Position numbers and translations under genes: made by a program. This document shows positions 3,933 to 36,174 of a DNA stretch of 46,907 nucleotides, piece after piece. Within the stretch, counting starts at the first letter, position 1; the number at the start of each line of letters is the position of its first letter. This DNA is from a virus (lineage: Duplodnaviria; Heunggongvirae; Uroviricota; Caudoviricetes). The stretch lies in IMG/VR virus record IMGVR_UViG_2651869724_000014; one strand, written 5' to 3'. The notes beneath the pieces are model-generated. The model searched no databases, was not told where the DNA came from, and saw only the letters and a program-made list of their open reading frames with translations.

Positions 3933-3933
3933 G

Positions 3934-11008: not shown

Positions 11009-11009
11009 T

Positions 11010-11138: not shown

Positions 11139-11167
11139 TAAGCGAAGCAGCACCGCGAGGAATCAGT

Positions 11168-11784: not shown

Positions 11785-11953
11785 AAAGTGAATTTTGTGA
11801 TGCGGTGAATGCGGCTAAGCGCACGCGGAACAGTTAAAACCAAAAACAGTGTTATGGGTGGATTCTCTGTATCCGGCGTTAATTGTTAACTGGTTAACGT
11901 CACCTGGAGGCACCAGGCACCGCATCACAAAACTCATTGTTGAGGGCGCGAAA

Positions 11954-12142
11954 ATGAAAACGTTATTACCAAACGTTAATACGTCTGAAGGTTGTTTTGA
12001 AATTGGTGTCACTATCAGTAATCCTGTATTTACTGAAGATGCCATTAACAAAAGAAAACACGAACGGGAGTTATTAAATAAAGTATGCATTGTTTCAATG
12101 CTGGCCCGTTTACGTCTGATGCCAAAAGGATGTGCACAATGA
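11954..12142 (+). CDS. dicB: Cell-division inhibitor DicB
   Basis: 62-aa translation MKTLLPNVNTSEGCFEIGVTISNPVFTEDAINKRKHERELLNKVCIVSMLARLRLMPKGCAQ. Confidence 0.85.
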   Translation: MKTLLPNVNTSEGCFEIGVTISNPVFTEDAINKRKHERELLNKVCIVSMLARLRLMPKGCAQ

Positions 12143-12330
12143 ATCCAGTATTTGCACTTATTCTGACGGTTTTTCTTGTTTCCGGAGAGCCAGTTGATAT
12201 TGCAGTCAGTGTTCACAGAACAATGCAGGAATGTATGGCAGCAGCAACCGAACAGAAAATTCCAGGCAACTGTTATCCGGTCGATAAAGTTATTCACCAG
12301 GATAATAACGAAATCCCGGCAGGATTTTAA
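12139..12330 (+). CDS. ydfD: YdfD-like lysis-associated small protein
   Basis: 63 aa starting MNPVFALILTVFLVSGEPVD; ATG overlaps the dicB stop (caATGA). Confidence 0.65.
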   Translation: MNPVFALILTVFLVSGEPVDIAVSVHRTMQECMAAATEQKIPGNCYPVDKVIHQDNNEIPAGF

Positions 12331-12423
12331 AACAGCACCGTAATAAATATCCAGTTTCATTCTTATATGTCAGCAATGGCAGAGATTTGTTCACACTTAA
12401 ATCTGTGATGAGGTTTACCAATA

Positions 12424-14865
12424 ATGAGCACTGATAAAGAAGAATTTGCACTATATTGCGAAGCAAAAAATGACAAAGTAAGAAAACGCCTAGGAATTAA
12501 AGGTGGTTTTTACTGGACTACAGCAAAAAAATTATCTGTTGCAATCTCCCGCTGCATTACCGCAATGGATGACAACGATTATGATGAAGACGACTTTAAA
12601 AAACCCGTCCGCGTCAATTTGCCCGTTGTTGACGACCTTCCGCCAGAAGGCGTGTTTGATACTGAATTCTGCAACCGCTATGAAAAAGGCGGGAAAGATG
12701 GCATCACAATGACATTTATCGGCCCTTCCCCCTCTGTTCAGGACAAACCAGCCAGCACTGACAATACCAACATCAACGGCGAAGACATGACTGAGATTGA
12801 GGAGAGCATGCTTCTGCCTGTCTCCGGTCAGGAACTGCCCATTCGTTGGCTTGCTCAACACGGCAGCGAAAAACCAGTAACGCACGTTTCACGCGACGAA
12901 CTCCAGGCATTACACATTGCACGGGCTGAAGAACTACCGGCTGTTACTGCCCTGGCTATTTCGCATAAAACCAGTCTGCTCGACTCGCTGGAGATTCGCG
13001 ACCTCCACAAACTGGTTCGTGACACTGACAAAGTTTTCCCTAATCCTGGTAATTCAGACCTGGGACTAATAACTGCTTTTTTCGAAGCATACCTGGACGC
13101 TGACTACACTGATCGGGGTCTGCTGACAAAAGAGTGGATGAAAGGAAATCGTGTTTCACGCATCACCCGCACGGCTTCCGGTGCTAATGCTGGCGGTGGG
13201 AACAAAACCGATCGCAATCCGAATTTAGTACACACCCTCGACACACTGGATGTGGAGATTGCAGCAGCCACACTTCCGATGGATTTTAATATTTATGAAA
13301 TTCCGGGCAGCGTTTATCGTCGCGCAAAAGAAGTAGTCCTGAACAAAGAAAGTCCGTTCAAAGAATGGTCCGCAGCACTTCGTGCAACCCCGGGTATTCT
13401 GGACTATTCCCGCGCCGCTATTTTTGCACTTATCCGAAGCGCACACCCTGAATTTTATCACTACCCGGGACGCCTTCAGGGGTATATCAACGCCTATTTG
13501 ACGGAAACTGATCACGAGAACCCCAGCAAGGAAACTCTCACAGCTGCCCGGCATACGCCGGAAAAAGATATCCTGGAAAAAATTAACCGCGAGGTGGTTA
13601 CTGAGCGTGAAACAGAAGAAGAAAAACCACAACCATCTGACGCAATGGCAGGTGAACAGGCAACAACTGAAACAATGGAACCGGATACAACTGAACATGG
13701 CCAGAACGCGCAGTCGCTGGATGCTCAGTCGCAGGTGAGTTCCGCTAACCAAGTAAAAGTCACCGCTGACGAAGTAAACAAAATTATGCAGGCAGCCAAT
13801 ATCAGCCAGCCTGACGCCGATAAGTTACTTGCTGTATCGCGTGGTGAATTTGTTGAGGGGATTAGCGACCCTAATGATCCGAAATGGGTCAAGGGGATCC
13901 AGACTCGCGATTCTGTGAACCAGAACCAGCATGAATCGGAACGGAACGACCAAAAAGCGGAACAAAACAGCCCAAATGCGTTACAAAACGAGCCAGAAAC
14001 GAAACAATCCGAACCAGTAGCGCAACAGGAACCGGAAAAAGTCTGCACCGCCTGCGGTCAGAGCGGTGGCGGCAACTGCCCTGATTGTGGCGCGGTGATG
14101 GGCGACGCAACATACCAGGAAACATTCGATGAAGAGAATCAGGTTGAAGTTCAGGAAAATGATCCGGAGGAAATGGAAGGCGCTGAACATCCACACAAGG
14201 AGAACCCTGGCGGCAATCAGCATCACGCCAGCGATAATAAAACTGGCGAGGCGACAGATCCCTTAATTAAGGTGAATGGTCATCATAAGCTCACATCCAC
14301 CAGCAGAGCGGGGATTCATCTGATGATCGACCTTGAAACCATGGGAAAAAATCCCGATGCCCCGATTATCTCAATAGGCGCAATATTTTTCGATCCACAA
14401 ACCGGAGATATGGGACCGGAATTTAGCAAGACCATCGATCTGGATACTGCTGGCGGAGTCATTGATCGTGACGTCATTAAATGGTGGCTGAAGCAATCAC
14501 GTGAAGCGCAGTCTGCCATTATGACCGATGAAATCCCGTTAGATGATGCACTACTGCAATTGCGGGAATTTATCGACGAAAACTCCGGTGAATTTTTTGT
14601 TCAGGTCTGGGGTAATGGGGCCAACTTCGACAACGTGATTTTACGCCGTTCATACGAACGACAGGGTATCCCCTGCCCATGGCGCTACTGCAACGATCGC
14701 GATGTACGCACAATCGTTGAGCTGGGGAAAGCCATAGACTTCGATGCCAGAACTGCTATCCCATTCGAAGGTGAGCGCCATAATGCACTTGATGACGCTC
14801 GTTACCAGGCAAAATACGTTTCAGCTATCTGGCAAAAACTGATCCCGAGTCAGGCTGATTTTTAA
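12424..14865 (+). CDS. Full-length YdfE-family protein with zinc ribbon and C-terminal DnaQ-like DEDDh 3'-5' exonuclease domain
   Basis: 813 aa; CTACGQSGGGNCPDCG zinc ribbon; exonuclease motifs IDLETMG, WGNGANFDNVIL and HNALDDARYQAKYV. Confidence 0.6.
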   Translation: MSTDKEEFALYCEAKNDKVRKRLGIKGGFYWTTAKKLSVAISRCITAMDDNDYDEDDFKKPVRVNLPVVDDLPPEGVFDTEFCNRYEKGGKDGITMTFIGPSPSVQDKPASTDNTNINGEDMTEIEESMLLPVSGQELPIRWLAQHGSEKPVTHVSRDELQALHIARAEELPAVTALAISHKTSLLDSLEIRDLHKLVRDTDKVFPNPGNSDLGLITAFFEAYLDADYTDRGLLTKEWMKGNRVSRITRTASGANAGGGNKTDRNPNLVHTLDTLDVEIAAATLPMDFNIYEIPGSVYRRAKEVVLNKESPFKEWSAALRATPGILDYSRAAIFALIRSAHPEFYHYPGRLQGYINAYLTETDHENPSKETLTAARHTPEKDILEKINREVVTERETEEEKPQPSDAMAGEQATTETMEPDTTEHGQNAQSLDAQSQVSSANQVKVTADEVNKIMQAANISQPDADKLLAVSRGEFVEGISDPNDPKWVKGIQTRDSVNQNQHESERNDQKAEQNSPNALQNEPETKQSEPVAQQEPEKVCTACGQSGGGNCPDCGAVMGDATYQETFDEENQVEVQENDPEEMEGAEHPHKENPGGNQHHASDNKTGEATDPLIKVNGHHKLTSTSRAGIHLMIDLETMGKNPDAPIISIGAIFFDPQTGDMGPEFSKTIDLDTAGGVIDRDVIKWWLKQSREAQSAIMTDEIPLDDALLQLREFIDENSGEFFVQVWGNGANFDNVILRRSYERQGIPCPWRYCNDRDVRTIVELGKAIDFDARTAIPFEGERHNALDDARYQAKYVSAIWQKLIPSQADF

Positions 14866-14923
14866 TGTTCAACCCTAATTGCCGCTAACCGTATATAGTT
14901 AGCGGCGGTTATGAGATATAGCT

Positions 14924-15127
14924 ATGAGCAGCTTATTTTTAACCGAAGATGAATTGCTAATATTAACGGGCTGCAAATATGCAAGCCACCAGCGAAAATG
15001 GTTAATGGAAAACGGGCTTCCGTTCTATACCAATCGTAGTGGCAAACCGATTGTCAGCCGGGATCTATTTACCTGCAATAAAACTTTACCACCACGCGAG
15101 GTAGAGCCGAATTTTGGTGCGATCTGA
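14924..15127 (+). CDS. Excisionase-like protein (DUF4224-type)
   Basis: 67 aa, LFLTEDELLILTGCKYASHQRKWLMENGLPF, immediately upstream of int. Confidence 0.5.
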   Translation: MSSLFLTEDELLILTGCKYASHQRKWLMENGLPFYTNRSGKPIVSRDLFTCNKTLPPREVEPNFGAI

Positions 15128-16209
15128 TGGGAAGACGAAGGAAAAATCCTGAACACGAAAAATTACCTCCAAATGTATACCCAAATAAATATAGTTATGT
15201 ATGGAAACCAACATCCAGAGAATCTGTCACACTAACCGCCATCAAGGATGGTTTAGCTGCTTTATGGAAAAAGTATGAGGAAACTGTAAATAATCGCGAT
15301 CGTGCAATGACATTCGGTCGCTTGTGGGAAAAATTCCTCGCCAGCGCCTATTACAGTGACCTTAGTCCAAGAACACAAAAAGATTATCTGCAACATCAAA
15401 AAAAGTTGCTTGCCGTATTCGGTAAGGTACCAGCGGATTCCATAAAACCAGAACACATCCGTCGATACATGGACAAAAGAGGGGAGCAGAGTAAAACGCA
15501 AGCCAACCATGAAAAAAGCAGTATGTCCCGTGTTTACAGTTGGGGGTATGAGCGAGGGTACGTCAAGGCTAACCCATGTGCAGGTGTAAGTAAATTCAAG
15601 GCCAAAAACCGCGAACGATATGTAACCGACAAAGAATACCAGGCAGTATTAAGCGTTGCACCTCTTCCTGTTTTTATCGCAATGGAAATTGCCTATCTGT
15701 GTGCAGCGAGGGTTTCCGATGTGTTATCGCTGAAATGGGAACAGATTGGAAACGACGGGATATTCATCCAGCAAGGGAAAACCGGAAAAAAACAGATAAA
15801 AGCATGGAGTCCACGATTACAGGCAGCGATCGAAAAAGCAAAACAGTTACCAAAATCTGCCTATGTGATCAGCAATCAATACGGCAACCGATATATGTAC
15901 AAAGGCTTTAACGAAATGTGGGTAGAAGCAAGAAATCGTGCTGGAAAAATTTCAGGTATTTTAACCGACTTCACCTTTCATGATCTGAAGGCGAAAGGAA
16001 TTTCAGACTATGAAGGAAGCAGCCGGGATAAGCAACTTTTCTCTGGTCACAAAACCGAAGGGCAAGTGCTAATCTATGACAGGAAGGTTAAAGTTTCACC
16101 AACACTTGATGTCCCGTTACCTGAAAATATTCCAAGAAAATATTCCAAGAAAATATTCCAAGTAATTCCAAGTGTGATTTTTGTCACTGACTTAATGATG
16201 TGTAAGTGA
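15127..16209 (+). CDS. Lambdoid prophage tyrosine integrase
   Basis: 360 aa with tyrosine-recombinase catalytic region; ends 8 bp before the tRNA-Ser 3' end. Confidence 0.85.
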   Translation: MGRRRKNPEHEKLPPNVYPNKYSYVWKPTSRESVTLTAIKDGLAALWKKYEETVNNRDRAMTFGRLWEKFLASAYYSDLSPRTQKDYLQHQKKLLAVFGKVPADSIKPEHIRRYMDKRGEQSKTQANHEKSSMSRVYSWGYERGYVKANPCAGVSKFKAKNRERYVTDKEYQAVLSVAPLPVFIAMEIAYLCAARVSDVLSLKWEQIGNDGIFIQQGKTGKKQIKAWSPRLQAAIEKAKQLPKSAYVISNQYGNRYMYKGFNEMWVEARNRAGKISGILTDFTFHDLKAKGISDYEGSSRDKQLFSGHKTEGQVLIYDRKVKVSPTLDVPLPENIPRKYSKKIFQVIPSVIFVTDLMMCK

Positions 16210-16217
16210 TTGAATTT

Positions 16218-16307
16218 TGGCGGAGAGAGGGGGATTTGAACCCCCGGTGGAGTTGCCCCCACTCCGGTTTTCGAGACCGGTCCGTTCAGCCGCTCCGGCA
16301 TCTCTCC
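16218..16307 (-). tRNA. serU: tRNA-Ser (anticodon CGA)
   Basis: Minus-strand sequence GGAGAGATGCCGGAGCGG...CTCGAAAACC...GGTTCAAATCCCCCTCTCTCCGCCA: long variable arm, CGA anticodon loop, CCA end. Confidence 0.85.
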
Positions 16308-16400
16308 GTTCAGATGGTTGCCATGATGCCAGGAAATTTGGCATTTTAACAGTCCCTGTCCGTGCAATTTTGTTCAAGTGACGAGTTTGCGAGCAAAACG

Positions 16401-17198
16401 ATGATTAAGTGGCCCTGGAAAGTACAAGAATCAGCACATCAAACTGCCCTTCCCTGGCAGGAAGCACTATCGATCCCCCTTTTAACGTGTCTGACAGAAC
16501 AGGAACAAAGCAAATTAGTCGCTCTTGCCGAACGTTTTTTACAACAAAAACGGCTTGTTCCTTTACAGGGCTTTGAGCTGAATTCATTAAGAAGCTGCCG
16601 GATAGCACTTCTATTTTGCCTGCCCGTTCTGGAGTTAGGACTGGAATGGCTGGATGGTTTTCATGAAGTCTTAATTTATCCTGCGCCATTTGTGGTCGAT
16701 GATGAATGGGAAGACGATGTCGGTCTGGTGCATAACCAACGTATTGTTCAGTCAGGTCAGAGCTGGCAGCAAGGGCCTATCGTTTTGAACTGGTTGGATA
16801 TACAAGATTCTTTTGATGCTTCTGGTTTTAACCTGATTATTCATGAAGTCGCTCATAAGCTGGACACCCGTAACGGCGATCGCGCCAGCGGAGTTCCCTT
16901 TATTCCGTTGCGTGAGGTTGCTGGCTGGGAACACGATCTTCATGCTGCAATGAACAACATTCAGGAAGAAATCGAATTGGTTGGCGAGAATGCGGCGAGC
17001 ATTGATGCTTATGCTGCCAGTGATCCTGCTGAATGTTTTGCCGTACTTTCTGAATATTTCTTTAGCGCCCCAGAACTTTTTGCTCCTCGTTTCCCTTCAT
17101 TGTGGCAACGTTTCTGCCAATTTTATCAACAAGATCCTTTGCAGAGACTGCATCGCACTAATAATACAGACTCGTTTTCGGCGACGAATGTTCATTAA
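16401..17198 (+). CDS. mtfA: Mlc titration factor MtfA (YeeI)
   Basis: [28 protein letters not shown]... matches MtfA as recalled, including IHEVAHKLD zinc-peptidase-like motif; chromosomal GC content. Confidence 0.85.
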
Positions 17199-17298
17199 TT
17201 AACAACTTTGCAGATTAATTAACCAATTGAAATGGCTTATGAAATTTAGTGTTGACAGACAAGGTACCGCTAAGTAATATGCGCCCCGTTCACACGAT

Positions 17299-17374
17299 TC
17301 CTCTGTAGTTCAGTCGGTAGAACGGCGGACTGTTAATCCGTATGTCACTGGTTCGAGTCCAGTCAGAGGAGCCA
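17299..17374 (+). tRNA. asnT: tRNA-Asn (anticodon GTT)
   Basis: TCCTCTGTAGTTCAGTCGGTAGAACGGCGGACTGTTAATCCG...GGTTCGAGTCCAGTCAGAGGAGCCA, 76 nt. Confidence 0.85.
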
Positions 17375-17375
17375 A
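17352..17375. repeat. Island attL: direct repeat formed by tRNA-Asn 3' end
   Basis: gttcgagtccagtcagaggagccaa recurs at 45796-45820. Confidence 0.6.
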
Positions 17376-17553
17376 TTTAAAGAAAGCAGACGTTCACTGA
17401 CGTCTGTTTTCTGCATTTATATCAACTGGTTATCCCCTTCTTCAGGTTCACCCTCGTTCGTTAAAAACCGCTCGAATCCACACTACTTTGCTGGTAAAAA
17501 TGCTGGTAAAGCTGGTTCGATTTGCGTTTTACCAGCACGCGGAGGGAACCGTC

Positions 17554-18888: not shown

Positions 18889-19605
18889 CTAAATCGCTAA
18901 CAGTTCTGTTTTCCAGTATTCACTACCACTTTTATCACAGACATGTGAATATAATATCCTATCCATAATCCTAACAATTTCTTTAACATTATTTAGCTTA
19001 TCAATAACAGTATCTTTTGAAAGATTAATTGAAGAATATGAATGGGCTAACTCCGTGCGGCTATCAGAGAAAGACTGGAGCATGAACTCATAATCTTTTT
19101 TACCTTTCGCAGTCATTGCTTTTAATATATCTTTGATACCAAATCTATTAAAAAGAAGTTTGATATTTTTTTTGGAAGGATATTTTTTATCCATTATCAG
19201 CTGTTTTGGGACAATAACAGGCTTTACAGGAGAATTAGGTGACGATAACGCCTGAAGTTTATCCTTACACTTATTTAAGTCACTCATCATTATTGACTCA
19301 GAACCATGAGAAACGTAATTTATAAAATTTTTCTCTTGGTTTTTGAATAAAGAAAACAAGATAATTTCATCAGGTAGATGCGAAAGGCATCCGTTATTTT
19401 GGTTCAGCATGTCAATCCAATCTTCCAAAACATCTTTAATATAATCTTCGAATGCAGCAGAAACTCGAAATATCGCGTTATTATAAACACTATGTATAAT
19501 ATCTGTTCTTAATTCTTTTATTTTTGAAACATAACGAACCTGTTCAAGCAAATTGGAATGAATCTGCTCGAATTGTTTTCTAGATGCGCTTTTAATATAT
19601 GCCAT
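18889..19605 (-). CDS. Hypothetical partner of DUF262 protein (has an Rx4H motif, possible HEPN-like)
   Basis: 238 aa; start overlaps stop of upstream DUF262 gene at 19605; contains SRTELAHSY (R-x4-H); no HNH/DUF1524 motif seen. Confidence 0.35.
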   Translation of the reverse strand: MAYIKSASRKQFEQIHSNLLEQVRYVSKIKELRTDIIHSVYNNAIFRVSAAFEDYIKDVLEDWIDMLNQNNGCLSHLPDEIILFSLFKNQEKNFINYVSHGSESIMMSDLNKCKDKLQALSSPNSPVKPVIVPKQLIMDKKYPSKKNIKLLFNRFGIKDILKAMTAKGKKDYEFMLQSFSDSRTELAHSYSSINLSKDTVIDKLNNVKEIVRIMDRILYSHVCDKSGSEYWKTELLAI

Positions 19606-20720
19606 CAGTTGAAATACCGTTCAATGAAATTTTTCATTGTGCTAATACGATAATGAACCGATTGCGTCGCCGAAGTGCCAGAAGTAATCGACTCATTAAA
19701 ACGCTCCTCTGATGTTATTCTTTGAAACTCTATTAAGAAATCCTTAAGTTTTGTTGCATCAAGTTCGTTTATCATATCCTGATTAAATTTTGATACCATA
19801 AACCCGACAATTAGAGCATCAAATAAAGCAGAATTGAAATTTCTTACTTGAGGCTCTAAGTTTTCATTTAGAATTCTAAATGCTTTTTTACCAAACAATT
19901 TATTAATACAGTTTAATGCACCAAGAAATCTACTACGCCACTCCAAGGCAACATCAGGTTCAATATTTTGTTTTTCAGAACTAAAATCATTAAGGAATTT
20001 CTTTAATGGTTTTTTATATGGTGTCACAGAATATGAAAGTGCGAATGCTCTCAATATGAGTTCATTATTCTTCATTCGTGTGTCATTTTTAATTCCTGTT
20101 AAGTCTCTCCATACTTTCTCCTCACTTATTTCGTCAATCATAGTAAATAATGGACCATGATAAACTCCATGACGTACCTCCTGAGGATTTAATTGTACTG
20201 CACCTGTATTTATTCTTTCAAAAACATCAATTTTAATTTGAGGGTGAGTTTCTTTTAATATGGTTATGCATCTCAATGTGCGATTTAAAATATGCCTACG
20301 GAATCTCGCGTCCAGTGATGAAAACGAATTCCCCTCCAATTCTGGATATGCTGTCAATCCCTGTAATTCAAAACCATCCTCAATAAATAGTTTAATTGAA
20401 GTCAACCGTTGATTACCATCAATAACAGATAAACTCTCATCTTTCTCTTGGTTTAAATAAATAACAGGGATAGGACACTGGATTATTAAAGACTCAATTA
20501 ATCTTGATGCCTGCCCTCTACTCCAAACATATTTCCTTTGAAAATCAGGAATAAACACAGTACCATTTTTCAAATAGTCGACGAGTGTTGATATTGAAAA
20601 ATCGTAAGTCTCGGTATGCAATCGACGCTGCTCAGGGGGAATATCAACGATAGAAATATCATCATCATCAAATATTGGGAAAAGTTTATCCGCAAGTTTT
20701 TTGGCATCATTAACAGACAT
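19605..20720 (-). CDS. DUF262 (ParB/Srx-like) domain protein, GmrS-like
   Basis: IPDFQRKYVWSRGQASRLIESLIIQCPIPVIYL and VIDGNQRLTSI are the DUF262 signature blocks. Confidence 0.6.
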   Translation of the reverse strand: MSVNDAKKLADKLFPIFDDDDISIVDIPPEQRRLHTETYDFSISTLVDYLKNGTVFIPDFQRKYVWSRGQASRLIESLIIQCPIPVIYLNQEKDESLSVIDGNQRLTSIKLFIEDGFELQGLTAYPELEGNSFSSLDARFRRHILNRTLRCITILKETHPQIKIDVFERINTGAVQLNPQEVRHGVYHGPLFTMIDEISEEKVWRDLTGIKNDTRMKNNELILRAFALSYSVTPYKKPLKKFLNDFSSEKQNIEPDVALEWRSRFLGALNCINKLFGKKAFRILNENLEPQVRNFNSALFDALIVGFMVSKFNQDMINELDATKLKDFLIEFQRITSEERFNESITSGTSATQSVHYRISTMKNFIERYFN

Positions 20721-20921: not shown

Positions 20922-22199
20922 ATGTTAAAGAATACCAAGGAATGTGCCAACTCTGTATCAAGTGTGACGAATGCCATTGAAAGGGCCAAGGAACTATCAG
21001 GACTCGTCGTATCACGATTAAAATCCGAAGGCATGTATGCGGTTGGTAATGTGGATGGTTTATACCTTCGCATCCGAAATCAGTCCCGTGCATGGGTTCT
21101 TTGCGTGGCTATGGGAACCCGAATCAACAATCTCGGTAGAACAGTTCCAAGACGTTTGAATATGGGGCTTGGCCCTTACCCGGAAGTCTCCTTAGCCGAA
21201 GCGCGTGACAAAGCGCGTGAGCTACGTAAACAAATCCGTAATGGTATTAATCCCCTTCAAGAAAAACACGAACAAAAAGCCCGGCAGGAAATACTGGCCC
21301 GGAAGAAAAAGACCTTTGCCGAATGTTGTGAAGAAGTGCTGGAGGTCAAAGACAGTGAGATGAAGAACAAAAAACATCTCGCGCAATGGCGTTCCACACT
21401 GGAAACCTATGCCTACCCTTTCATTGGCAAAAAGGCCGTTAGTGAAATCACCAAAGTCGATCTTCTGGCAATACTGGAACCTATCTGGTTAACCAAGAAT
21501 GAAACTGCCAGTCGTCTACGTGGACGTATTGAAACAGTGATCGATTACGCCAAGGCCAAAGAATACTTTGAAGGTGATAATCCTGCCGCATGGAAAGGTA
21601 TGCTGAAACCTCTGTTGCCTCAGCCAAGTAAAGTTCAGATCACCAAACACCATGCGGCCCTTCCCTATAACCAGATCGGCTCTTTTATGAAAGAACTACG
21701 TGAACGAAGCGGCGTTTCTCCTCGTGCGCTTGAGTTTGCCATACTGACCGCAGCACGCTCAGGTGAAATTCGTGGTGCCGAGTGGTCAGAGATCGATCTT
21801 GAAGGTAAAACGTGGACCATACCTGCAAGCCGAATGAAAGCAGCGAAGGAGCATCGAGTTCCTCTGTCTGATGCTGCTGTTGCCTTGTTAAAAGCTTTAC
21901 CACGCTTTAAGGGTATCAGTTTTGTATTCCCTGCCACTCGGAAGGGACAACTCTCGGATACGGCTTTACTGGCAGTCCTAAAGCGAATGGGATATACCGA
22001 TTTAACACAGCATGGGTTTAGATCGACATTCCGTGATTGGGCTGGTGAAACGACCAACTATCCGCGTGAGGTAATTGAACATGCGTTAGCTCACCAGTTG
22101 GCAGATAAGGCAGAGGCTGCGTATCAACGTGGGACGTTATGGCCTAAGCGGGTGGCGTTGATGGATGAGTGGTCGGGGTTTTGTCTTGCCAATGTTTAG
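20922..22199 (+). CDS. Second tyrosine integrase (int2) of the nested element
   Basis: GLYLRI...YPEVSLAEARDKAREL arm-binding N-domain and a recombinase C-domain; distinct from int1. Confidence 0.7.
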   Translation: MLKNTKECANSVSSVTNAIERAKELSGLVVSRLKSEGMYAVGNVDGLYLRIRNQSRAWVLCVAMGTRINNLGRTVPRRLNMGLGPYPEVSLAEARDKARELRKQIRNGINPLQEKHEQKARQEILARKKKTFAECCEEVLEVKDSEMKNKKHLAQWRSTLETYAYPFIGKKAVSEITKVDLLAILEPIWLTKNETASRLRGRIETVIDYAKAKEYFEGDNPAAWKGMLKPLLPQPSKVQITKHHAALPYNQIGSFMKELRERSGVSPRALEFAILTAARSGEIRGAEWSEIDLEGKTWTIPASRMKAAKEHRVPLSDAAVALLKALPRFKGISFVFPATRKGQLSDTALLAVLKRMGYTDLTQHGFRSTFRDWAGETTNYPREVIEHALAHQLADKAEAAYQRGTLWPKRVALMDEWSGFCLANV

Positions 22200-22208
22200 C
22201 GGTCTGAT

Positions 22209-22503
22209 TGAAAACATGATCAACAAGGCGCTGCGTAAGATGGGCTATGACACCACGCAGGATATTTGCGGTCATGGTTTCCGCACACTGGCATGTAGTG
22301 CTCTGATTGAATCAGGGCTATGGTCTGAAGATGCGGTGGAACTCCAGATGAACCACAAGGAAAGCAACAGTGTTCGTGCTGCCTATACACATAAGGCCAA
22401 ACATCTTGAGCAGCGAAGGTTGATGCTACAATGGTAGGCAGATTTTCTTGATGCTAACTGGGATGGGATGGTCAGGCCGTTTGAGTTTGCTCAGAAACAA
22501 TAA
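22209..22503 (+). pseudogene. Displaced 3' fragment of an int1-like integrase gene
   Basis: Encodes INKALRKMGYDTTQDICGHGFRTLACSALIESGLW...HLEQRRLMLQW*, paralogous to int1 C-terminus, with a premature stop. Confidence 0.6.
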
Positions 22504-22533: not shown

Positions 22534-22566
22534 AATAAAAAACGCAGGGAGGTTTTACTCTCCCTG
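22534..22566 (-). terminator. Intrinsic terminator-like hairpin
   Basis: cagggag / ctccctg stem followed on the minus strand by a T-run. Confidence 0.35.
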
Positions 22567-22573: not shown

Positions 22574-22825
22574 TCACTTACGCCCTTTGTTTGATTGTGC
22601 CAAAACAGAGGCTGCAAGTTGCTTCGTTAACTTGCTGGAACGTGGATTATCAAGAGCTGATGATGCCTTATGCTCCATTTGCCCACTTGTCTGGTTTGAT
22701 GTCCCACGTTGCGAAAGCGCAGAACCAGCGAGGCTTTTCTGGATGGCAGAAGCATTAGGATTAGCCAGCGTTTTTGCAGCAGTAGAAGCCACATTTTCAG
22801 AAGTCTGTTTTACGTTTTTACTCAT
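22574..22825 (-). CDS. Hypothetical Ala/Ser-rich small protein
   Basis: ORF only, MSKNVKQTSENVASTAAKTLANP...; low complexity. Confidence 0.25.
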   Translation of the reverse strand: MSKNVKQTSENVASTAAKTLANPNASAIQKSLAGSALSQRGTSNQTSGQMEHKASSALDNPRSSKLTKQLAASVLAQSNKGRK

Positions 22826-23176
22826 GAAACGAATCCCCAAGAAGTTATGAATATCCCTTATGTAGTACTTACATTCCTAAAGAAACACCACATACAGTGG
22901 CATCAACAGATTTTATAATCCTTTGTTTTCCTAAAAACAAGTCTAAAACTGTATAAAAACACAGTTATGATATAGTCTATTGTTTTTAATGAATAAAAAT
23001 AACTAATCGCGTTTAACGAAGAGAAACTAAAAGTTAGCCACTGCTATGAAAAAGAGCTCCTGACAGCAAATAACTTTCAGAAATCTATAGCGATCTTCAT
23101 CTTGAGAGAGGCTTGTACTTAACCCGCAAAAGGTATAGGTATATAATTATTATCAGCTTATACCAAATGGCTATCA

Positions 23177-24097
23177 ATGATAGGAATAAAAATGATTTTA
23201 GTTATAACATCTAGCTTTGATAAAACAATTGATTACATAGTAAAAAAACATAGCATTAACAATTTTTACAGGTTAGATGTTGATAATTTCTCTGAATATA
23301 AATTTTCTTACACTAAAAAAGGATTCAGTATTGTTAATAAAAATAATAATGAATTGCTCGAGAGTGAATGCAGATCCATCTATTATAGAAAACCAACTCC
23401 TGAGAATATTATCAATAAAATTGATTCAAAATATCATAATCATTGCTTTCGAGAAGTATTCGCTTTTGTTGAAGGGATTGCTGAGTCGTTTACTGGAAAA
23501 TGCTTATCCAAGCCATCAATTATAAAAAGAGCAGATAACAAAGTATTGCAAGCAAAAACTGCAATTGATATTGGATTCACAATTCCTGATTTTATATTGA
23601 CAAATAATTTCGATTGTTTCAAAAACACTTTGACAATCAATAGCATTGTCAAACCGTTATCAAGTGGATTGATAGAAAATCAGAAAGAAAAGGAATTTGT
23701 TCAAACAAATATGGTTGACATGAATAAAAACACAGAAACATTAAAATATTGTCCAGCTTATTTTCAATCGTATACAAAAAAAGAATTCGAGGTGAGATCA
23801 ACATTCATAAATGGTAAAGATTATTCGGTAAAAATAATATCTAAAAATAAAATTGACTGGAGAAAAGACAATAACGAAATATTCTATTCAACAATAAAAA
23901 TGCCTGATACTATAAAAGAAAAATGTCTGAGGTATATGTCAGTCATGAATATTTCTTTTGGATGTTTTGATTTTATAGTTTTTGATGGTGAATGGTTCTT
24001 CTTAGAGATGAATGCAAATGGTCAATGGGCATGGCTAGAAAATGAAACGAATATTAATGTGTCAAGTGAGTTAGTGAGGTTTTTAAATGAAGTATAA
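23177..24097 (+). CDS. ATP-grasp family ligase
   Basis: VKPLSSG and C-terminal FGCFDFIVFDGEWFFLEMNANGQWAWLE are ATP-grasp-like blocks. Confidence 0.55.
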   Translation: MIGIKMILVITSSFDKTIDYIVKKHSINNFYRLDVDNFSEYKFSYTKKGFSIVNKNNNELLESECRSIYYRKPTPENIINKIDSKYHNHCFREVFAFVEGIAESFTGKCLSKPSIIKRADNKVLQAKTAIDIGFTIPDFILTNNFDCFKNTLTINSIVKPLSSGLIENQKEKEFVQTNMVDMNKNTETLKYCPAYFQSYTKKEFEVRSTFINGKDYSVKIISKNKIDWRKDNNEIFYSTIKMPDTIKEKCLRYMSVMNISFGCFDFIVFDGEWFFLEMNANGQWAWLENETNINVSSELVRFLNEV

Positions 24098-24941
24098 TTT
24101 CATTTACTTTATTATAAAATTATTAAACTTTTCATTATTATTCCACACATCATTAGATGAGAATTTTGATACTATTGAAAAAAGAAATGTTATTAATTCC
24201 ACGTCATTAAGAGTATCTTTATTATGTTTTCCTGTGGGGAGTAAAATAATATATTTATTAACTTTCAATAAAAAATCAAACCGTATTTTGGATAAATCTA
24301 ACTTCCAGTTTTTTACGAGCATACACTATGATACACTTTGCCCAAGAATATCGGGCACAAAAATTGAAGAATATGTCATGGCGTATAGTCAATATATTAA
24401 ATCAATTCTACCTAAAAGAAGGAAGGAACAAGAAGATTTTTTAAAGCAGCGCCTTTCCGAAAATAACGATAGTTTATCTAATCTTCAAAGTAAGATAACA
24501 CATTATACTACTATCACTATTGCCCTCACAGGGGCAGTGGTTTATCTACAAACCATTCTACCATCCGCAAATACAAATTTTGCAATAAGATTTATTTCCT
24601 ATTATTTATTTTTTATATTGCTTGTTGATATAATTAATTTATTTCTTTTTCTAAGAAAAGGAATGATGGTAAGTAGTTTTTCTCAATCAAGTTTTAAATC
24701 ATTAAAATTTGATAACAGTAATTATGCCTTAACGAAGGCTATATATCGTGACTGGATAGCAAGAAAAGATGACGTCAGATATTTTGCAGGTATAGTTAGA
24801 AATGCCGAAAAATATCTATACAGATCGATTTTAGTTGGAATCACGCTATACATGTTTTCCATTTCACTGCAATATTATAGCGATAATCCAGTGAATGAAA
24901 TCATATTCACGCCGTCAGGCATGTTTTTAGCTGTAAATTAA
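24087..24941 (+). CDS. Polytopic membrane protein, translationally coupled to the ATP-grasp gene
   Basis: 11-bp overlap with the ATP-grasp gene; hydrophobic segments (TITIALTGAVVYLQTILP, FISYYLFFILLVDIINLFLFL, ILVGITLYMFSISLQYY). Confidence 0.45.
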   Translation: MKYNFIYFIIKLLNFSLLFHTSLDENFDTIEKRNVINSTSLRVSLLCFPVGSKIIYLLTFNKKSNRILDKSNFQFFTSIHYDTLCPRISGTKIEEYVMAYSQYIKSILPKRRKEQEDFLKQRLSENNDSLSNLQSKITHYTTITIALTGAVVYLQTILPSANTNFAIRFISYYLFFILLVDIINLFLFLRKGMMVSSFSQSSFKSLKFDNSNYALTKAIYRDWIARKDDVRYFAGIVRNAEKYLYRSILVGITLYMFSISLQYYSDNPVNEIIFTPSGMFLAVN

Positions 24942-24952
24942 AAGGATATAAT

Positions 24953-25297
24953 ATGAAACCGTATACTATGCTCTATAGTGAATCTTTCGAAATAAACGCA
25001 TCAACAATTTCAAGTAAAACAAACTCTACCGTAAAAACATTTACCACAGAACCTAATGATGAAGATTATCTCAACACTTGGACAACGCATACAAGAGTCA
25101 TAGAGAACCAAGATGAGGATTACAGTTTAGCCCCCAGCAACTGTGAAAGAAAATACGAAATATCTAATGAAAAGCAGTCTGCTATGGATACATTTTTTAC
25201 AGAATCTATTGAAAATAATGATGATGATTTTATAGTATGTAGAACATTTGTAACAAATGTCGTTGAATCAGGTGATGATGATTTCTATTTTAACTAA
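24953..25297 (+). CDS. Acidic Thr/Asp/Glu repeat peptide, candidate graspetide precursor
   Basis: 114 aa with repeated blocks TFTTEPNDEDY, ENQDEDY, TFFTESIENNDDDF, TFVTNVVESGDDDFYF; AAGGA-type RBS; terminator follows. Confidence 0.4.
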   Translation: MKPYTMLYSESFEINASTISSKTNSTVKTFTTEPNDEDYLNTWTTHTRVIENQDEDYSLAPSNCERKYEISNEKQSAMDTFFTESIENNDDDFIVCRTFVTNVVESGDDDFYFN

Positions 25298-25330
25298 ATA
25301 GATTCTGGTGAAACAAACGCCTTAATTATA

Positions 25331-25354
25331 AAGGGCCTTCTTGGCCCTTTTAAT
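25331..25354. terminator. Bidirectional intrinsic terminator
   Basis: aagggcc-ttct-tggccctt hairpin then T-rich tract, between convergent genes. Confidence 0.5.
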
Positions 25355-28834: not shown

Positions 28835-30304
28835 ATGGCGATTTTCCATCTGGATTTTAAAATTGTGAAACGAAGCGAGGGCATGACTTCCGTTGCGAAA
28901 GCTGCCTACCATGCCCGTACACGTATTACAGATGATCGCATTGGCGAAACATTTGATTTCAGCCACAGAACAGATCTTCATGGTCATATTATATTAGCGC
29001 CCGTTTCCGCACCTGCTCATATTATTGAAAGCTCCTCAGCACTCTGGAATGAAGTTGAAAGAGTGGAACGCCAGAACAACGGTCAAACAGCCCGTTATTT
29101 TGATGTCGCTATTCCCGTAGAACTCAACAATGATGACAAGAAAAAATTGGTTGCCGAATACTGCCAGAAGAACTTTGTTGATAAAGGAATGATTGCTGAT
29201 ATCGCATTCCATGACTTAGACAGTAAGAACCCACACGCTCACGTCATGTTAACCCTGAAAACCATCGGGCCCGAAGGCTTCGGTAAAAAAGACAGAACTT
29301 GGAATGATAAGAAGATGGTTGTTCAGTGGCGTGAGTCGTGGGCCACGATGTCAAACAGCTACCTTGAAGCCGCAGGCAGTGAAGAACGTATCGATCACCG
29401 TTCTCTCAGAACTCAATGTGCTGATGCCCTTGCTCAGGCAGAAGAAGCATTCAGTGCTGAAGAGAAAGCATTCTGGCTTGCCAAAGCAACGGAAACAAAC
29501 CGCCCGGCAATGCAGCGTGTTCATCGTGCTAAATGGAATGATACCGAGTCTCAGGAACAACGAGCTGCTGAACAAGCTCAACGCGATCATCAAATTGAGG
29601 AAGCAAAGAAGGTCTACGCCACATTCAGTGAGCTACCACTGGAAATCGTTGTTGATGTTCGCTCTTACTCTGTTTACCAGCTTCCTGAACCGGAAGAGAT
29701 CGTTCTCCCTGACTACCCGGCAACAACAAAGCAGCAACCGATTCATGCAGAGTCAGAACCATACAGAAGACCAGCCGTAAAATCTTACCATGCCCCCAAT
29801 AAGGTCAGTAAAGTTGGTGCTGCAGCTAAGAAATCCCCTGTTCTGGTTGCACCTGAACCAAATAAATCCACTAAACTGAAAAACCCTTCTTCTCAAAACA
29901 CCAGAGCGATGAAGCGTGCTCCTGTGAGGAGTAGGAAACAGACCAAGCCCCGCCAGAATGGTTTGTTTAAACGTTTCACGCTACTGATAGTAGGATATAT
30001 AAGAGAGAAATTTATATGGGCCAGAATGAAACCCGATACCACTGATGCTGACCATGATAAGCGTATCGCAGAGAACTATGTCTATGATGAAGTGCTGGGT
30101 GTCAATGTTCCACGCTCAGAGTTTGAAAAACGTACCAAATTTAACGATAGTAACTATAAATTAACACCTAATGAGATCAAGCGTTTCCCAAGCCGTCCTA
30201 AGCGAGTTCAATTAGAGTCAGAGAGCGGTATGGATGTCCTCCCTAAAAATAATCAATTTAACTCGTCAAAAATAAACTTCGTCAAACCAAATTTTAGATC
30301 ATAA
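28835..30304 (+). CDS. mobA: MobA/MobL-family relaxase
   Basis: MAIFHLDFKIVKRS...AKAAYHAR (catalytic Tyr context) and NPHAHVMLTLK (His-rich motif) parallel RSF1010 MobA. Confidence 0.7.
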   Translation: MAIFHLDFKIVKRSEGMTSVAKAAYHARTRITDDRIGETFDFSHRTDLHGHIILAPVSAPAHIIESSSALWNEVERVERQNNGQTARYFDVAIPVELNNDDKKKLVAEYCQKNFVDKGMIADIAFHDLDSKNPHAHVMLTLKTIGPEGFGKKDRTWNDKKMVVQWRESWATMSNSYLEAAGSEERIDHRSLRTQCADALAQAEEAFSAEEKAFWLAKATETNRPAMQRVHRAKWNDTESQEQRAAEQAQRDHQIEEAKKVYATFSELPLEIVVDVRSYSVYQLPEPEEIVLPDYPATTKQQPIHAESEPYRRPAVKSYHAPNKVSKVGAAAKKSPVLVAPEPNKSTKLKNPSSQNTRAMKRAPVRSRKQTKPRQNGLFKRFTLLIVGYIREKFIWARMKPDTTDADHDKRIAENYVYDEVLGVNVPRSEFEKRTKFNDSNYKLTPNEIKRFPSRPKRVQLESESGMDVLPKNNQFNSSKINFVKPNFRS

Positions 30305-30412: not shown

Positions 30413-31933
30413 ATGATTAGTGAAATCACAACAAATGGCACTAAAATTAAACTAAGAAATAATAGTGCTAATGATATTAATATTTATGATATGGATTCTT
30501 TATCTTTACTTATTGGTATAAATGGTTCAGGGAAGACAAAATCCTTATGTAGCATAATTAACTATTTCTTTCCTAAAAATAACATGCAATTAACAGGCGA
30601 TTGTACAATATTAAACTCTAGCGGTGAAAGAATAGATCATACTGAAATTAGAAACTGGGGAGTTATATATTTCACCCCATTACCATTTAGACCAAAGTTG
30701 AATATTAGAGATAGTAGGTTTATTAACGCATCTCCAAGCTTGAATGGAAAAAATACTGTATTTGACCTTATCGAATACAAGGATTTAATATCTGACTTTG
30801 ATATTTATCCAAAAGTTGTTGCCATGAAGATGACAAACATTAGCAAAGTTGCAAGATTAATACTTAATATCGCTTTAAATAATAAAGATCTTAATCAGAA
30901 CAGCATACTACTGAATCACGGTCTCCTTGATATTTTGTCATTACGTGCAAAAATTGATGATAATATAGATAATGACGATTCAGACACTATAAAATATAGT
31001 ACCAATAAAAATATTCAAGCAGAAATTGATTCTATTATGCAGCGTTGCTCCGCGCATCTGATTGATGAAATACTTCATCGCGCAGGTGAAGAAAAACTCT
31101 TTTCCATATTTAGCATAATAGATTGGGCAAGTACAAAAAAACAGTTCAGTGATAACGTAGTAATTCCATTATTAAACAAACACTTAAATTTAAACATCCG
31201 TTCAAATAGAAAACTCAGAGAGACTAAATTATATTTAGAATGTGAAAGCAAAATAGATAGTTTACTTAATATTATAAAATATGAGGTAAAAAACCATGAA
31301 ATCATAAAGGATTCAAGACTTAATGAATCAACTTTAAGGTTAGAATTCGAAATAGACCCTTACGAAGGACAAAGGTTATTAACAAGATACAATTTGAATG
31401 ATATTTTTAAAATTGATTTTTCTGATATGAGTTCTGGGCAAATTGCTATTCTAGCTCAAATTGGCGCCATCTCTGACTCTATTACTAAACTGTCAGATAG
31501 AGGTATCAGATCAATACTACTATTAATAGATGAAGGGGACGCTTTTTTACATATCGATTGGCAAAGGAAATATATTTCTAATTTAAATAAAATGCTAGGC
31601 TCATTAAAAACATCTCTGGGCATAGATAATTTACAACTTATTCTAGCCTCGCACTCTCCATTGTTAGCCACAGACGTTCCCAAAGACTTTATAACTAGAC
31701 TACCAATTGAAAATGCTACGTTAAGTGGTTTTGCATCTCCTCTTTATATTTTACTAAATGAATCTTTTGGAACTAAAACCATTGGAGAATTTGCAACAAA
31801 TAAAATTGAAACCATCATCGACAAAATACCTAATAGAATACTGACTGAAAAAGATTATTACCTTATAAATAATATAGACAACCCTCTAATAAAAAGCGAA
31901 ATCGAACGCTTAATTATGCAGCATAAGGATTGA
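30413..31933 (+). CDS. ptuA: Septu PtuA-like ABC/SMC-type ATPase
   Basis: Walker A GINGSGKT, signature-like MSSGQ, Walker B LLLIDEGDAF, followed by H-loop ASHSP; 506 aa. Confidence 0.65.
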   Translation: MISEITTNGTKIKLRNNSANDINIYDMDSLSLLIGINGSGKTKSLCSIINYFFPKNNMQLTGDCTILNSSGERIDHTEIRNWGVIYFTPLPFRPKLNIRDSRFINASPSLNGKNTVFDLIEYKDLISDFDIYPKVVAMKMTNISKVARLILNIALNNKDLNQNSILLNHGLLDILSLRAKIDDNIDNDDSDTIKYSTNKNIQAEIDSIMQRCSAHLIDEILHRAGEEKLFSIFSIIDWASTKKQFSDNVVIPLLNKHLNLNIRSNRKLRETKLYLECESKIDSLLNIIKYEVKNHEIIKDSRLNESTLRLEFEIDPYEGQRLLTRYNLNDIFKIDFSDMSSGQIAILAQIGAISDSITKLSDRGIRSILLLIDEGDAFLHIDWQRKYISNLNKMLGSLKTSLGIDNLQLILASHSPLLATDVPKDFITRLPIENATLSGFASPLYILLNESFGTKTIGEFATNKIETIIDKIPNRILTEKDYYLINNIDNPLIKSEIERLIMQHKD

Positions 31934-31945
31934 AGGTCTTCATAT

Positions 31946-32878
31946 ATGATTATTTCAATTAAAAACAACTGGGAAAAAGCAATAAAATTACATACACATT
32001 ATTTAAATAATTTGATATGCAACTTTTTAAATAAATCCATTCCTAGTTCTGAAGGACGAGACGAAGCTAAAAAATTTATTCTAGATGTGCATCACCTATT
32101 AATACTTGCCGGTAAACAAGATATATTGGAGAGTATTGATATATATAGAGAGTACAAACACAGATTGTCAATAACGCCGGATATATCGAAGCAATTCGAC
32201 AAAGAAATAAGATCTATTTTTAATTACAATAAGTTTGTTAGGAAAACAGGATCATGGAATGCATATACTCTATGTAAAAAATCAATAAGCAGAACATGTC
32301 CGTATTGCAATCAAGCATATGCTTTTTCGATACAAAAAAAGAATCGCGGTTTTCGTCCTACATTAGATCATTTTTATAGTAAGGATGACTTTCCTCACCT
32401 TGCATTGGTAATTAACAATTTAATCCCAAGTTGTAGTTCATGTAACTCAAGCCTTAAAGGCACAATTGATTTCTTCGCAAATGAACATTTAAACCCACTG
32501 TGGGATGATGAAGTTATAAATTTCGTTTTAACTCATGAGGATGGTGTTTTAACATTAATAGACGGAATGATTTCATCACCAGAAAAAATAAAAATAAACA
32601 TATCTTACGATACTACAAATATTTCAATTAAAAACACAGTAAATACTTTTTTGATAAACGAAAGATATCAAGAAATGACAATAGAAGCAATAGAATTTGC
32701 AACTGCCAAATTAAATCTTGAATATGCCGTATCTACTGGAATATCATATTTCAAAAATAACTCAGAAAGTAGTATATTAAGATTTGACAAAAGAGAATAT
32801 AAAAAATATTTGCTCGGTAAATTATATTTAGATATATATAATAAAATGCCAAATGCAAATATAGTTAACACTCGTTAA
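31946..32878 (+). CDS. ptuB: Septu PtuB-like HNH endonuclease
   Basis: HNH-type motifs CPYCNQ, LDHFYSK, NNLIPSCSSCNSSLKG; 13 bp downstream of the ATPase gene. Confidence 0.65.
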   Translation: MIISIKNNWEKAIKLHTHYLNNLICNFLNKSIPSSEGRDEAKKFILDVHHLLILAGKQDILESIDIYREYKHRLSITPDISKQFDKEIRSIFNYNKFVRKTGSWNAYTLCKKSISRTCPYCNQAYAFSIQKKNRGFRPTLDHFYSKDDFPHLALVINNLIPSCSSCNSSLKGTIDFFANEHLNPLWDDEVINFVLTHEDGVLTLIDGMISSPEKIKINISYDTTNISIKNTVNTFLINERYQEMTIEAIEFATAKLNLEYAVSTGISYFKNNSESSILRFDKREYKKYLLGKLYLDIYNKMPNANIVNTR

Positions 32879-34907: not shown

Positions 34908-35930
34908 TTAATTCCCTGTTATTATTTTGCTTAGAATTTCGTCAATATATTCGGTTGTAACTATAAACGCATTTTTACCAATCTCACTTCGAAATATTTG
35001 GCATTCATCACTATGAAATTTACTAATGAAAAAATCAAATGAACACTGTGCTATAGCCTTATTAATACCATCCACGTTTGGTTTATCTTCTGGATTTGGC
35101 GTTGCATAAAGTAGCGAATATGAATCTAATGGAATATATATACATTTTAAATCATCATTACTTTCATAGAATGGCTTAAACTTTCGTTCCCCAGACACTT
35201 CAAAGATTACAATACTATCTCCTAAAATCAAAGATTGATTTGTTTTCAATACTTTGTAATGCATATTCTTATAAATATTACTTTTCTTATCCTCAGATGA
35301 AACCAAAACATCTAACTGAACCTTTTTTACTATTTCAGGTATTTTTGATATTATTTCTTGCTCAAACTTCGGAACTAATGTTGATAGCATCTTTTCTGCA
35401 GCATTTGGTAGCCATAATTGAACGTTATCAAAAAACATGGAGTTATATTGCTCATGTAGACTTGCTGGTATTGGTAGTTTATTTAACTCATTTTGAAGTA
35501 ATTCTTTGATTGTTTTTGGATTTCTTTGGAAATAATCAATAAGAGTTTCCTTGTCTAGCAATCTGTTTTTTAATTGCTCACCAAAATATGCCCATGAATC
35601 TATCATGTTTTCTCTTAAGTTTTTTGTTCTAATCTCCATATGATAAATAAACTCGGCTAAATCTTTCCTGTTGTCTAGGTTGTAAGTCCCATCGACTAAA
35701 CTATTAAGTATGCGTGAATAACTGTATGTTTCGTTTTCTGTTATTTTTTTATCAACGCTTGAATCGCCATAGTGAGAATAAAACTTGTTTTCCAAACCAA
35801 TATTCTCTACTATCATGTTTTCCTTGAAACAATCTTTTCTATACCAGTTAGTAAAATACTTCCCATTTTTTTCGTTAGAAAAACCTCTTTGTAAAAAACG
35901 TGGAATAAAATGTTGCCTATTCCCTGCCAT
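34908..35930 (-). CDS. DUF4238-like protein (candidate single-gene defence)
   Basis: N-terminus MAGNRQHFIPRFLQRGFS resembles the conserved DUF4238 block; GGAG RBS upstream of ATG at 35930; AT-rich. Confidence 0.45.
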   Translation of the reverse strand: MAGNRQHFIPRFLQRGFSNEKNGKYFTNWYRKDCFKENMIVENIGLENKFYSHYGDSSVDKKITENETYSYSRILNSLVDGTYNLDNRKDLAEFIYHMEIRTKNLRENMIDSWAYFGEQLKNRLLDKETLIDYFQRNPKTIKELLQNELNKLPIPASLHEQYNSMFFDNVQLWLPNAAEKMLSTLVPKFEQEIISKIPEIVKKVQLDVLVSSEDKKSNIYKNMHYKVLKTNQSLILGDSIVIFEVSGERKFKPFYESNDDLKCIYIPLDSYSLLYATPNPEDKPNVDGINKAIAQCSFDFFISKFHSDECQIFRSEIGKNAFIVTTEYIDEILSKIITGN

Positions 35931-36174
35931 TATCTTCTCCTCATAGCAAATAAATATGGACAATATATTACCAACATTCTAACTATCATCAATGATTAAA
36001 ACAGAGGAACAAAAGGATTCTCTCTCAGCGAATGGGAACAATGGAACAGCAGCGGTTTCTTCGTAATCGGACTGAAACCGTAGTATTGCATCGGAACAAA
36101 AAATTAACTTACCTTCCATCGCTCATCCTCCTCCTGTAGTTATCAGACTAAATATTTTACCAGAACATAGGTTG

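Follow-up and report, generated by a model that had tools for sequence, protein, structure and literature searches.

The three-gene cassette at positions 23177-25297 of IMG/VR virus record IMGVR_UViG_2651869724_000014, a 46,907-nucleotide stretch of DNA that we refer to as the window, is very probably (approx. 0.82) a graspetide biosynthetic cassette of the thuringinin type (Lee group 3), borne as cargo by a mobilizable island at tRNA-Asn. A preliminary description of the sequence had put forward a multi-core graspetide locus with an ATP-grasp ligase, and this proposal is supported by the family of the ligase, the grammar of the precursor cores and conservation among orthologues. The locus is already known, as it is present in published censuses (data sets of 2009, 2020 and 2022) and its ligase has a family name in RefSeq; it has been catalogued by genome mining. 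RefSeq calls the ligase 'MvdC/MvdD family ATP grasp protein' and the other two cassette genes 'hypothetical'. Graspetide residue logic is recognizable from sequence alone, and the locus itself adds little new.

The cassette consists of three co-directional, tightly packed open reading frames (ORFs) on the plus strand, 23177-24097 (306 amino acids, aa), 24087-24941 (284 aa) and 24953-25297 (114 aa), with exactly the coordinates that had been given for them before. The last of these encodes the precursor peptide, and the first two are as follows:

23192..24097, plus strand: graspetide ATP-grasp macrocyclase, identified by NCBIfam, Pfam, and PDB sequence and fold matches; 301 aa from its likelier start, 306 aa as the longest ORF from 23177
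24087..24941, plus strand: conserved membrane protein, 284 aa, identified by hydropathy and by homology to the middle genes of orthologous cassettes

The ligase start at 23192 is favoured because it is the RefSeq start, gives the usual orthologue length of approximately 301 aa and has a GGA 8 nucleotides (nt) upstream.

The ligase belongs to the graspetide macrocyclase family and is not of the RimK type. Among NCBIfam models it matched the graspetide maturase TIGR04187 (E = 2.9e-50, 171 bits), MvdD (5.9e-41), MvdC (7.6e-41) and grasp-with-spasm (1.6e-23), and its matches to TIGR04187, TIGR04184 and TIGR04185 (1e-41 to 3e-50) all fall under the equivalog cut-offs. The RimK model TIGR00768 yielded 1.3e-9 and 37.8 bits against a cut-off of 143.4 bits, and Pfam RimK 12.4 bits (E = 0.12) against a cut-off of 21; the MvdD pre-ATP-grasp domain (PF21068) scored 35.2 bits, above its 27-bit cut-off. 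PDB sequence matches were headed by MdnB (8.6e-32), followed by CdnC, AMdnB, MdnC, PruB and PsnB (6e-5 for PsnB). The structure of the ligase was modelled using AlphaFold2 (AF2) on 15 orthologues, with a predicted local distance difference test (pLDDT) score of 90.3, and in a Foldseek search of the PDB with this model graspetide macrocyclases take all of the first 32 places (E = 2.5e-22 to 1.5e-13). ArgX, LysX and RimK rank below every graspetide ligase, at 1e-12 or weaker. The preliminary description had suggested a profile search as a check on the family, and this returned the graspetide maturase model; profile scores and the PDB sequence and fold rankings alike place the ligase outside the RimK- and glutathionylspermidine-type enzymes. 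Residues invariant over the 15 orthologues include K154, E200, R202, D260, E272 and N274, the last two within an LEMN motif. We take K154, D260 and E272-x-N274 to be residues typical of ATP-grasp catalysis.

The precursor peptide starts with MKPYTMLYSE and continues as five repeat units, at residues 26, 44, 62, 80 and 98, with an exact period of 18 aa. Its parts, described with reference to TgnA of thuringinin where needed, are:

24953..25027, plus strand: leader, residues 1-25, with KPYTMLYSE (KPYxxxYxE), a motif common to orthologues and TgnA
25028..25066, plus strand: core 1, TVKTFTTEPNDED, residues 26-38, a perfect TxxTxxxExxDxD
25082..25120, plus strand: core 2, TTHTRVIENQDED, residues 44-56, a perfect TxxTxxxExxDxD
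25136..25189, plus strand: unit 3, SNCERKYEISNEKQSAMD, residues 62-79, degenerate, from register comparison
25190..25228, plus strand: core 4, TFFTESIENNDDD, residues 80-92, a perfect TxxTxxxExxDxD
25244..25282, plus strand: core 5, TFVTNVVESGDDD, residues 98-110, a perfect TxxTxxxExxDxD

When the residues of the peptide were shuffled 20,000 times, perfect cores arose at a mean of 0.001 per shuffle and no shuffle reached the four observed. Repeats of a Thr block followed by an acidic cluster had been pointed out in the preliminary description, and the pattern, with four perfect cores and one degenerate unit, turns out to be more regular than was noted there. For the repeat it had listed as ENQDEDY, the acidic half is real, and the full unit is the perfect core 2 including its Thr half. 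Both Thr and the acidic residues of unit 3 are gone in E. coli and in close Salmonella variants, while the same register in the Salmonella and Dickeya loci holds an intact core, TIETREIENSDQD, which in Dickeya is a perfect match. Unit 3 may serve as a linker in its degenerate form. Tandem Repeats Finder (TRF) detected no tandem repeat at the DNA level in the precursor gene, so the constancy of the motif residues is not a by-product of recent duplication; the units are ancient and have drifted apart except at the motif residues, which have stayed constant. In close homologues of the peptide K2, P3, Y4, Y8, S9 and E10 are invariant, and the [KR]PYxxxYxE motif is a candidate for the element recognized by the enzyme.

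A word-indexed search with the peptide recovered only near-identical E. coli and Salmonella fragments, and orthologues were reached through the synteny of the ligase. We compared 15 loci: the window, ten genome loci (Salmonella L002, Dickeya L005, Providencia L006, Vibrio L008, Paraburkholderia L009, Pseudomonas L010, Shewanella L011, Aeromonas L012, Serratia L013 and Pseudoalteromonas L014) and four IMG/VR contigs (L015 and L017-L019). The ligase family is broad, at 45-63% identity across Gammaproteobacteria and Burkholderiales. The gene order ligase, membrane protein (273-353 aa), peptide (108-156 aa) is kept at all 15 loci, and the three-gene linkage is obligate. Peptides from the window and the ten genome loci carry [KR]PYxxxYS beginning at residue 2-3 and have 3-7 perfect TxxTxxxExxDxD cores, and the four IMG/VR peptides start with MKPY and have 4-6. 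Homologues of the 114-aa ORF therefore keep the repeats, and do so more cleanly than E. coli, with 3-7 perfect cores each.

The placement of the ligase in the thuringinin branch is a look-up in Table S1 of the survey of graspetide loci by Makarova et al. (2022, Biol Direct 17:7, PMC8939145). That table lists dozens of E. coli ATP-grasp proteins (301/306 aa), including those of O127:H6 E2348/69 (GCA_000026545.1) and YD786, with the labels 'Branch_Thuringinin', 'Iyer_Lee', 'Lee', precursor 'cluster13' and 'gr_03'. These rows share a block with the thuringinin producer B. thuringiensis serovar huazhongensis BGSC 4BD1. According to the Methods of the survey, the Iyer and Lee labels mean that a ligase clusters at at least 80% identity with the sets of Iyer et al. 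(2009) and Lee et al. (2020), and gr_03 that the precursor perfectly matches Lee's group-3 motif. Cluster-13 precursors are described as having several group 3/5/6 core repeats and a shared leader, and the supplementary FASTA contains the exact sequence of the window precursor. In the same supplement TgnA has RPYIAKYVE at residue 3 and three cores such as TIVTETIENADPD; pairwise BLASTP of the E. coli peptide against TgnA gave E = 0.001. The survey also defines a 'cluster 18' of uncharacterized membrane proteins that are specific to thuringinin loci and probably transport the peptide. A conserved protein with three transmembrane (TM) helices lies between ligase and precursor at 15 of 15 loci, and the E. 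coli protein may belong to cluster 18.

Hydropathy and the positive-inside rule predict for this membrane protein a cytoplasmic N-terminal part of approximately 140 aa, a TM1-TM2 hairpin at approximately 141-190, a K/R-rich cytoplasmic loop and TM3 at approximately 243-264; most of the protein would thus be on the cytoplasmic side, with a short C-terminal tail outside the cell that is predicted to reach approximately 95 aa in Vibrio-type proteins. No match was found for it, or for its longer orthologues, among Pfam, NCBIfam, PADLOC and PDB profiles. With hmmsearch, at a nominal database size of 10^6, the middle genes of four orthologous cassettes were recovered with E-values of 3e-49 (Providencia), 1.5e-30 (Vibrio), 1.3e-13 (Paraburkholderia) and 1.5e-4 (Pseudomonas). 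The family is small, with 110 representative clusters among 1.84 billion proteins. One of its members, P0211 (548 aa; L022:579-2225, also on L023, the contigs being from two independent sequencing runs), is a natural fusion that joins a graspetide ligase (residues 4-298; TIGR04187, 4.1e-55) to a part belonging to the membrane family (residues 314-543). Directly after it comes a 134-aa precursor (L022:2227-2631) with five TxxTxxxExxDxD cores and GP linkers. By Rosetta-stone logic, this fusion suggests that the ligase works together with the membrane protein in a single complex on the inner side of the membrane; this would fit a scaffold or export role. The membrane partner is now tied to the ligase by the fusion, and the predicted complex is testable.

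Building on the ligase family, the conserved grammar of leader and cores, the three-gene linkage and the ligase-membrane fusion, all established here, we infer the biosynthetic steps from leader docking onward. The 114-aa precursor would be translated with its N-terminal KPYxxxYxE leader, which, on the model of thuringinin, plesiocin and microviridin, would dock on the pre-ATP-grasp (leader-binding) domain of the ligase and activate it. The ligase would phosphorylate Glu and Asp carboxylates of the cores with ATP, and attack by Thr hydroxyls would form omega-ester (macrolactone) side-chain rings, again by analogy. Two rings per core, as in thuringinin, would amount to about eight dehydrations (approx. 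-144 Da) over the four intact cores. The original thuringinin work is said to have described nested rings, the inner one from Thr4 to Glu8 and the outer one from Thr1 to one Asp. The E. coli product might then resemble a tetravalent string of small bicyclic hairpins and, judging from other characterized graspetides, would probably be a multivalent protease inhibitor. The ligase may work at the membrane with the 3-TM protein, which could scaffold, export or localize the product.

The ligase and membrane genes share 11 nt, and a GAGG stands 7 nt ahead of the ATG of the membrane gene; the peptide gene begins 11 nt after the membrane gene, with an AGGA ribosome-binding site before its ATG. The cassette was said to lie in the most AT-rich part of the island, which is borne out: positions 23001-25000 are the GC minimum of the window (28.5% and 29.2%), the 2 kb with its lowest GC. 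Two candidate signals flank the genes:

23119..23147, plus strand: sigma-70-like promoter candidate, TTAACC-17-TATAAT, from a consensus scan (10/12), approximately 45 nt before the likely ligase start
25330..25350, no strand assigned: hairpin AAAGGGCC-UUCUU-GGCCCUUU, with an 8-bp GC-rich stem and a U-rich tail

The promoter candidate is a consensus match only, and the AT-rich region has 22 such sites against 16.9 expected from shuffles. The 68 nt at 25298-25365 fold as RNA at -18.8 kcal/mol (z = -3.44; matched by 1 of 200 shuffles), and the hairpin at 25330-25350, absent from the output of a simple terminator scan, is likely a bidirectional terminator that separates the peptide gene from the convergent pilV. 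The operon had also been called terminator-bounded, which holds downstream only, because the sole good terminator upstream of the cassette serves a divergent small gene on the minus strand. This 88-aa ORF (22574-22840, minus strand), rich in Ser, Ala, Lys and Asn and without a Pfam match, lies between the integrase and the promoter region of the cassette; its own good terminator is at 22545-22566.

The island adjoins tRNA-Asn (17299-17374), and the cassette is flanked by integrase genes on one side and by the remnant of a conjugative element (pilV, a type 4 pilin gene, traD and mobQ) on the other. In E. coli the cassette is chromosomal and present in 92 of 5426 complete genomes (approx. 1.7%), in all 92 of which the precursor gene is at least 99% identical. 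It had no match in PLSDB plasmids and was absent by tblastn from 50,697 deposited phage genomes. The view that Escherichia islands would not be expected to hold such loci was overstated, given these 92 genomes and the dozens of strains listed in the thuringinin branch. A native multivalent graspetide cassette is available for study in its own host, both in the prototype enteropathogenic E. coli (EPEC) strain E2348/69 and in approximately 1.7% of complete E. coli genomes.

Further observations concern the window and a second variant. The upstream integrase ORF (425 aa, within 20922-22437) is intact in the window and split into pseudogene pieces in E2348/69, and a 90-aa fragment resembling an integrase (22165-22437) overlaps its end. 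The mobQ ORF (28835-30304, 489 aa) reads through in the window and has an internal stop in E2348/69. The region before tRNA-Asn (1-17378) is non-collinear with E2348/69, no complete E. coli genome covers at least 80% of 1-24000, and 2541-17378 matches prophage-like DNA (exonuclease, FRG, DUF968, integrase) of other strains. ARAGORN placed a tRNA-Ser(CGA) at 16218-16307 on the minus strand. A second, diverged cassette (L015:6001-8136) is found in 3 of 5426 complete E. coli genomes (PA45B, 400625 and MLI104K1). This L015-type variant has a ligase approximately 60% identical and a 127-aa precursor of upec-36 type; RefSeq has not recognized its ligase, as all three genes are annotated 'hypothetical protein'.

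Several points weigh against a functional thuringinin-type cassette in E. coli. The ligase scores 171 bits where the curated NCBIfam cut-off is 350, and is therefore a divergent member of its family. One of the five repeat units is degenerate in E. coli, and the census table lists shortened ligases of 94-285 aa in some E. coli strains (PMC8939145). No protease gene is present in the cassette and the leader lacks a GG cleavage site; export by the membrane protein is a guess, since it has only three TM helices and no transporter signature. A region of 28-29% GC may be silenced in E. coli. Our literature search found no experimental work on the E. coli product and no thuringinin-specific bioactivity data.

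A first alternative concerns the purpose of the product. The island that carries the cassette is a defence island, and defence-type genes recur near the cassette elsewhere. The neighbours in the window are:

18889-20720, minus strand: DUF262/GmrSD_N protein and adjacent HEPN protein (RiboL-PSP type), 2.5 kb upstream (PADLOC NsnA 5.6e-83, PD-T4-2_A 9e-44)
30413-32878, plus strand: Septu-like pair, an AAA_15/AAA_21 ATPase followed by an HNH protein, 5 kb downstream of the cassette
34908-35963: DUF4238 protein, further along the island
41934-42644: PIN_12 protein, further along the island

Those at the other loci are:

Shewanella (L011): CBASS (CD-NTase + Cap15), ApeA-HEPN and HipA
Pseudomonas (L010): SIR2
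L015: SIR2 and HerA
Pseudoalteromonas (L014): a TIR protein
Vibrio (L008): AbiH and UvrD
L019: AbiEii
Aeromonas (L012:9705-14909, a prophage): RES, methylase, SRA-HNH and holin/lysozyme genes
Providencia (L006): CTD1-MComp1-SMC
L017:4360-9576, a lambdoid prophage: the cassette lies between DUF968 and lysis (DUF2514)/terminase genes, a typical moron position

The ATPase of the Septu-like pair matched PDC-M62A (5e-23) and PtuA (approx. 1e-11), and the HNH protein PDC-M62B (1.5e-41) and PtuB (7e-10). As raw counts, which carry no enrichment statistic, approximately 11 of the 15 loci have defence-type neighbours and all 15 lie in a variable or mobile region.

It is conceivable, then, that the graspetide serves intracellular or envelope conflict of mobile elements (anti-phage action, superinfection exclusion or competition) and is not a secreted product; a membrane-anchored ligase complex would produce a multivalent inhibitor of, for instance, a phage maturation protease, or it would gate the membrane protein as an effector. 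The DUF262/HEPN genes upstream and the Septu-like pair downstream, the recurrence of such neighbours and the lambdoid moron slot all fit this idea, as do a cassette that has neither exporter nor protease and a membrane protein predicted to face mostly the cytoplasm. A PNAS paper of 2024 raises the speculation that graspetides may naturally serve to protect against proteases or bacteriophages (PMC11626197). However, none of the three cassette proteins matched PADLOC-DB 2.0 at E ≤ 1, although neighbouring genes do, the literature search found no paper linking graspetides to phage defence, and deposited phage genomes lack the cassette, as given above. Adjacency is also weak evidence, because bacteriocins, biosynthetic clusters and other cargo gather in the same integration hot spots. 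We consider a conflict role unlikely on present evidence. It is compatible with the biosynthetic mechanism and differs only in the purpose of the product. The 'uncharacterised conflict system' offered as an alternative in the preliminary description has no direct support, with no PADLOC hit, while the genomic context keeps a conflict-related role open.

Extended to the whole enterobacterial and gammaproteobacterial thuringinin-type branch, the same idea would make the cassette a mobile-element conflict module, in which the bicyclic peptide of a membrane-held ligase protects the host or the island from phages or rivals. We regard this as an improbable proposal, which if true would account for the placement among defence systems and in prophage moron slots. 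The text of the 2022 survey mentions neither defence nor mobile elements (PMC8939145), and the recurrent placement of the cassette in defence islands and prophage moron slots, undiscussed there, raises a testable link to phage or mobile-element conflict.

A second alternative holds that the E. coli locus, acquired horizontally as a cluster, is now a silent relic in decay and makes no functional product. It draws on several of the weaknesses noted above. Unit 3 of the precursor is degenerate, the GC content is 28-29% in a genome of approximately 50%, and several E. coli strains have shortened ligase ORFs in the census table. In addition, an IS1 insertion lies under the match in one strain (H5), and the neighbouring conjugative-element genes are a remnant, with mobQ and an integrase being pseudogenes in E2348/69. 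On the other hand, all three ORFs of the window are intact and have good ribosome-binding sites, four cores retain every motif residue and the precursor gene is nearly invariant over the 92 carrying genomes. The degeneracy of unit 3 is shared with diverged Salmonella variants whose other cores are intact, which argues that it is old and tolerated and not a sign of ongoing decay. A relic thus appears very unlikely.

The last alternative, a RimK- or glutathione-synthetase-type housekeeping amidoligase that adjoins an acidic peptide by coincidence, can point to the weak RimK domain matches and to the automatic JGI annotation of some homologues as 'glutathione synthase/RimK-type ligase-like', but is rejected as having a negligible chance of being right, as graspetide maturase models match better by 40 orders of magnitude, RimK, LysX and ArgX rank behind six solved graspetide macrocyclases in fold, the MvdD-type pre-ATP-grasp domain is above its cut-off, ligase and peptide are co-inherited at 15 of 15 loci and orthologous peptides keep their repeats.

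The thuringinin-type assignment can be set against graspetide systems that are better known. The relatives of solved structure that match the ligase best are MdnB of microviridin by sequence (8.6e-32) and CdnC of chryseoviridin by fold (2.5e-22). Microviridins are made by leader-dependent, ATP-driven side-chain esterification, and by analogy the same chemistry may be ascribed to the E. coli ligase. Their loci have two ligases (for ester and amide formation), a PFFARFL leader, a TxKxPSD core, an ABC transporter and an acetyltransferase, whereas the E. coli cassette is without these. In plesiocin (PsnA2/PsnB; group 2), a single ligase builds a multivalent graspetide in which each repeat has two nested esters, and the E. 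coli locus is likewise multi-core with one ligase. PsnB gives a clear fold match to the E. coli ligase (approx. 1e-17) and a weak sequence match (6e-5), but plesiocin differs in its core, TTxxxxEE, and its leader, LFIEDL.

Thuringinin itself, from B. thuringiensis serovar huazhongensis, is trivalent, with two esters per repeat (PMC12291112). The E. coli locus differs from it in its Gram-negative host and in being cargo of an island or prophage. Its enterobacterial leader has approximately 25 residues, compared with approximately 47 in TgnA, the 'GPD/GPE' linker that precedes each TgnA core is absent from the E. coli peptide, and there are four intact cores and one degenerate unit against three cores in TgnA. 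In both systems the locus includes an accompanying membrane protein, and the two proteins may be homologous. Both have a single ATP-grasp ligase, a [KR]PYxxxYxE leader and tandem TxxTxxxExxDxD cores, often of the form ...IEN.D.D[EYF], and the two ligases fall in the same branch of the published ATP-grasp tree.

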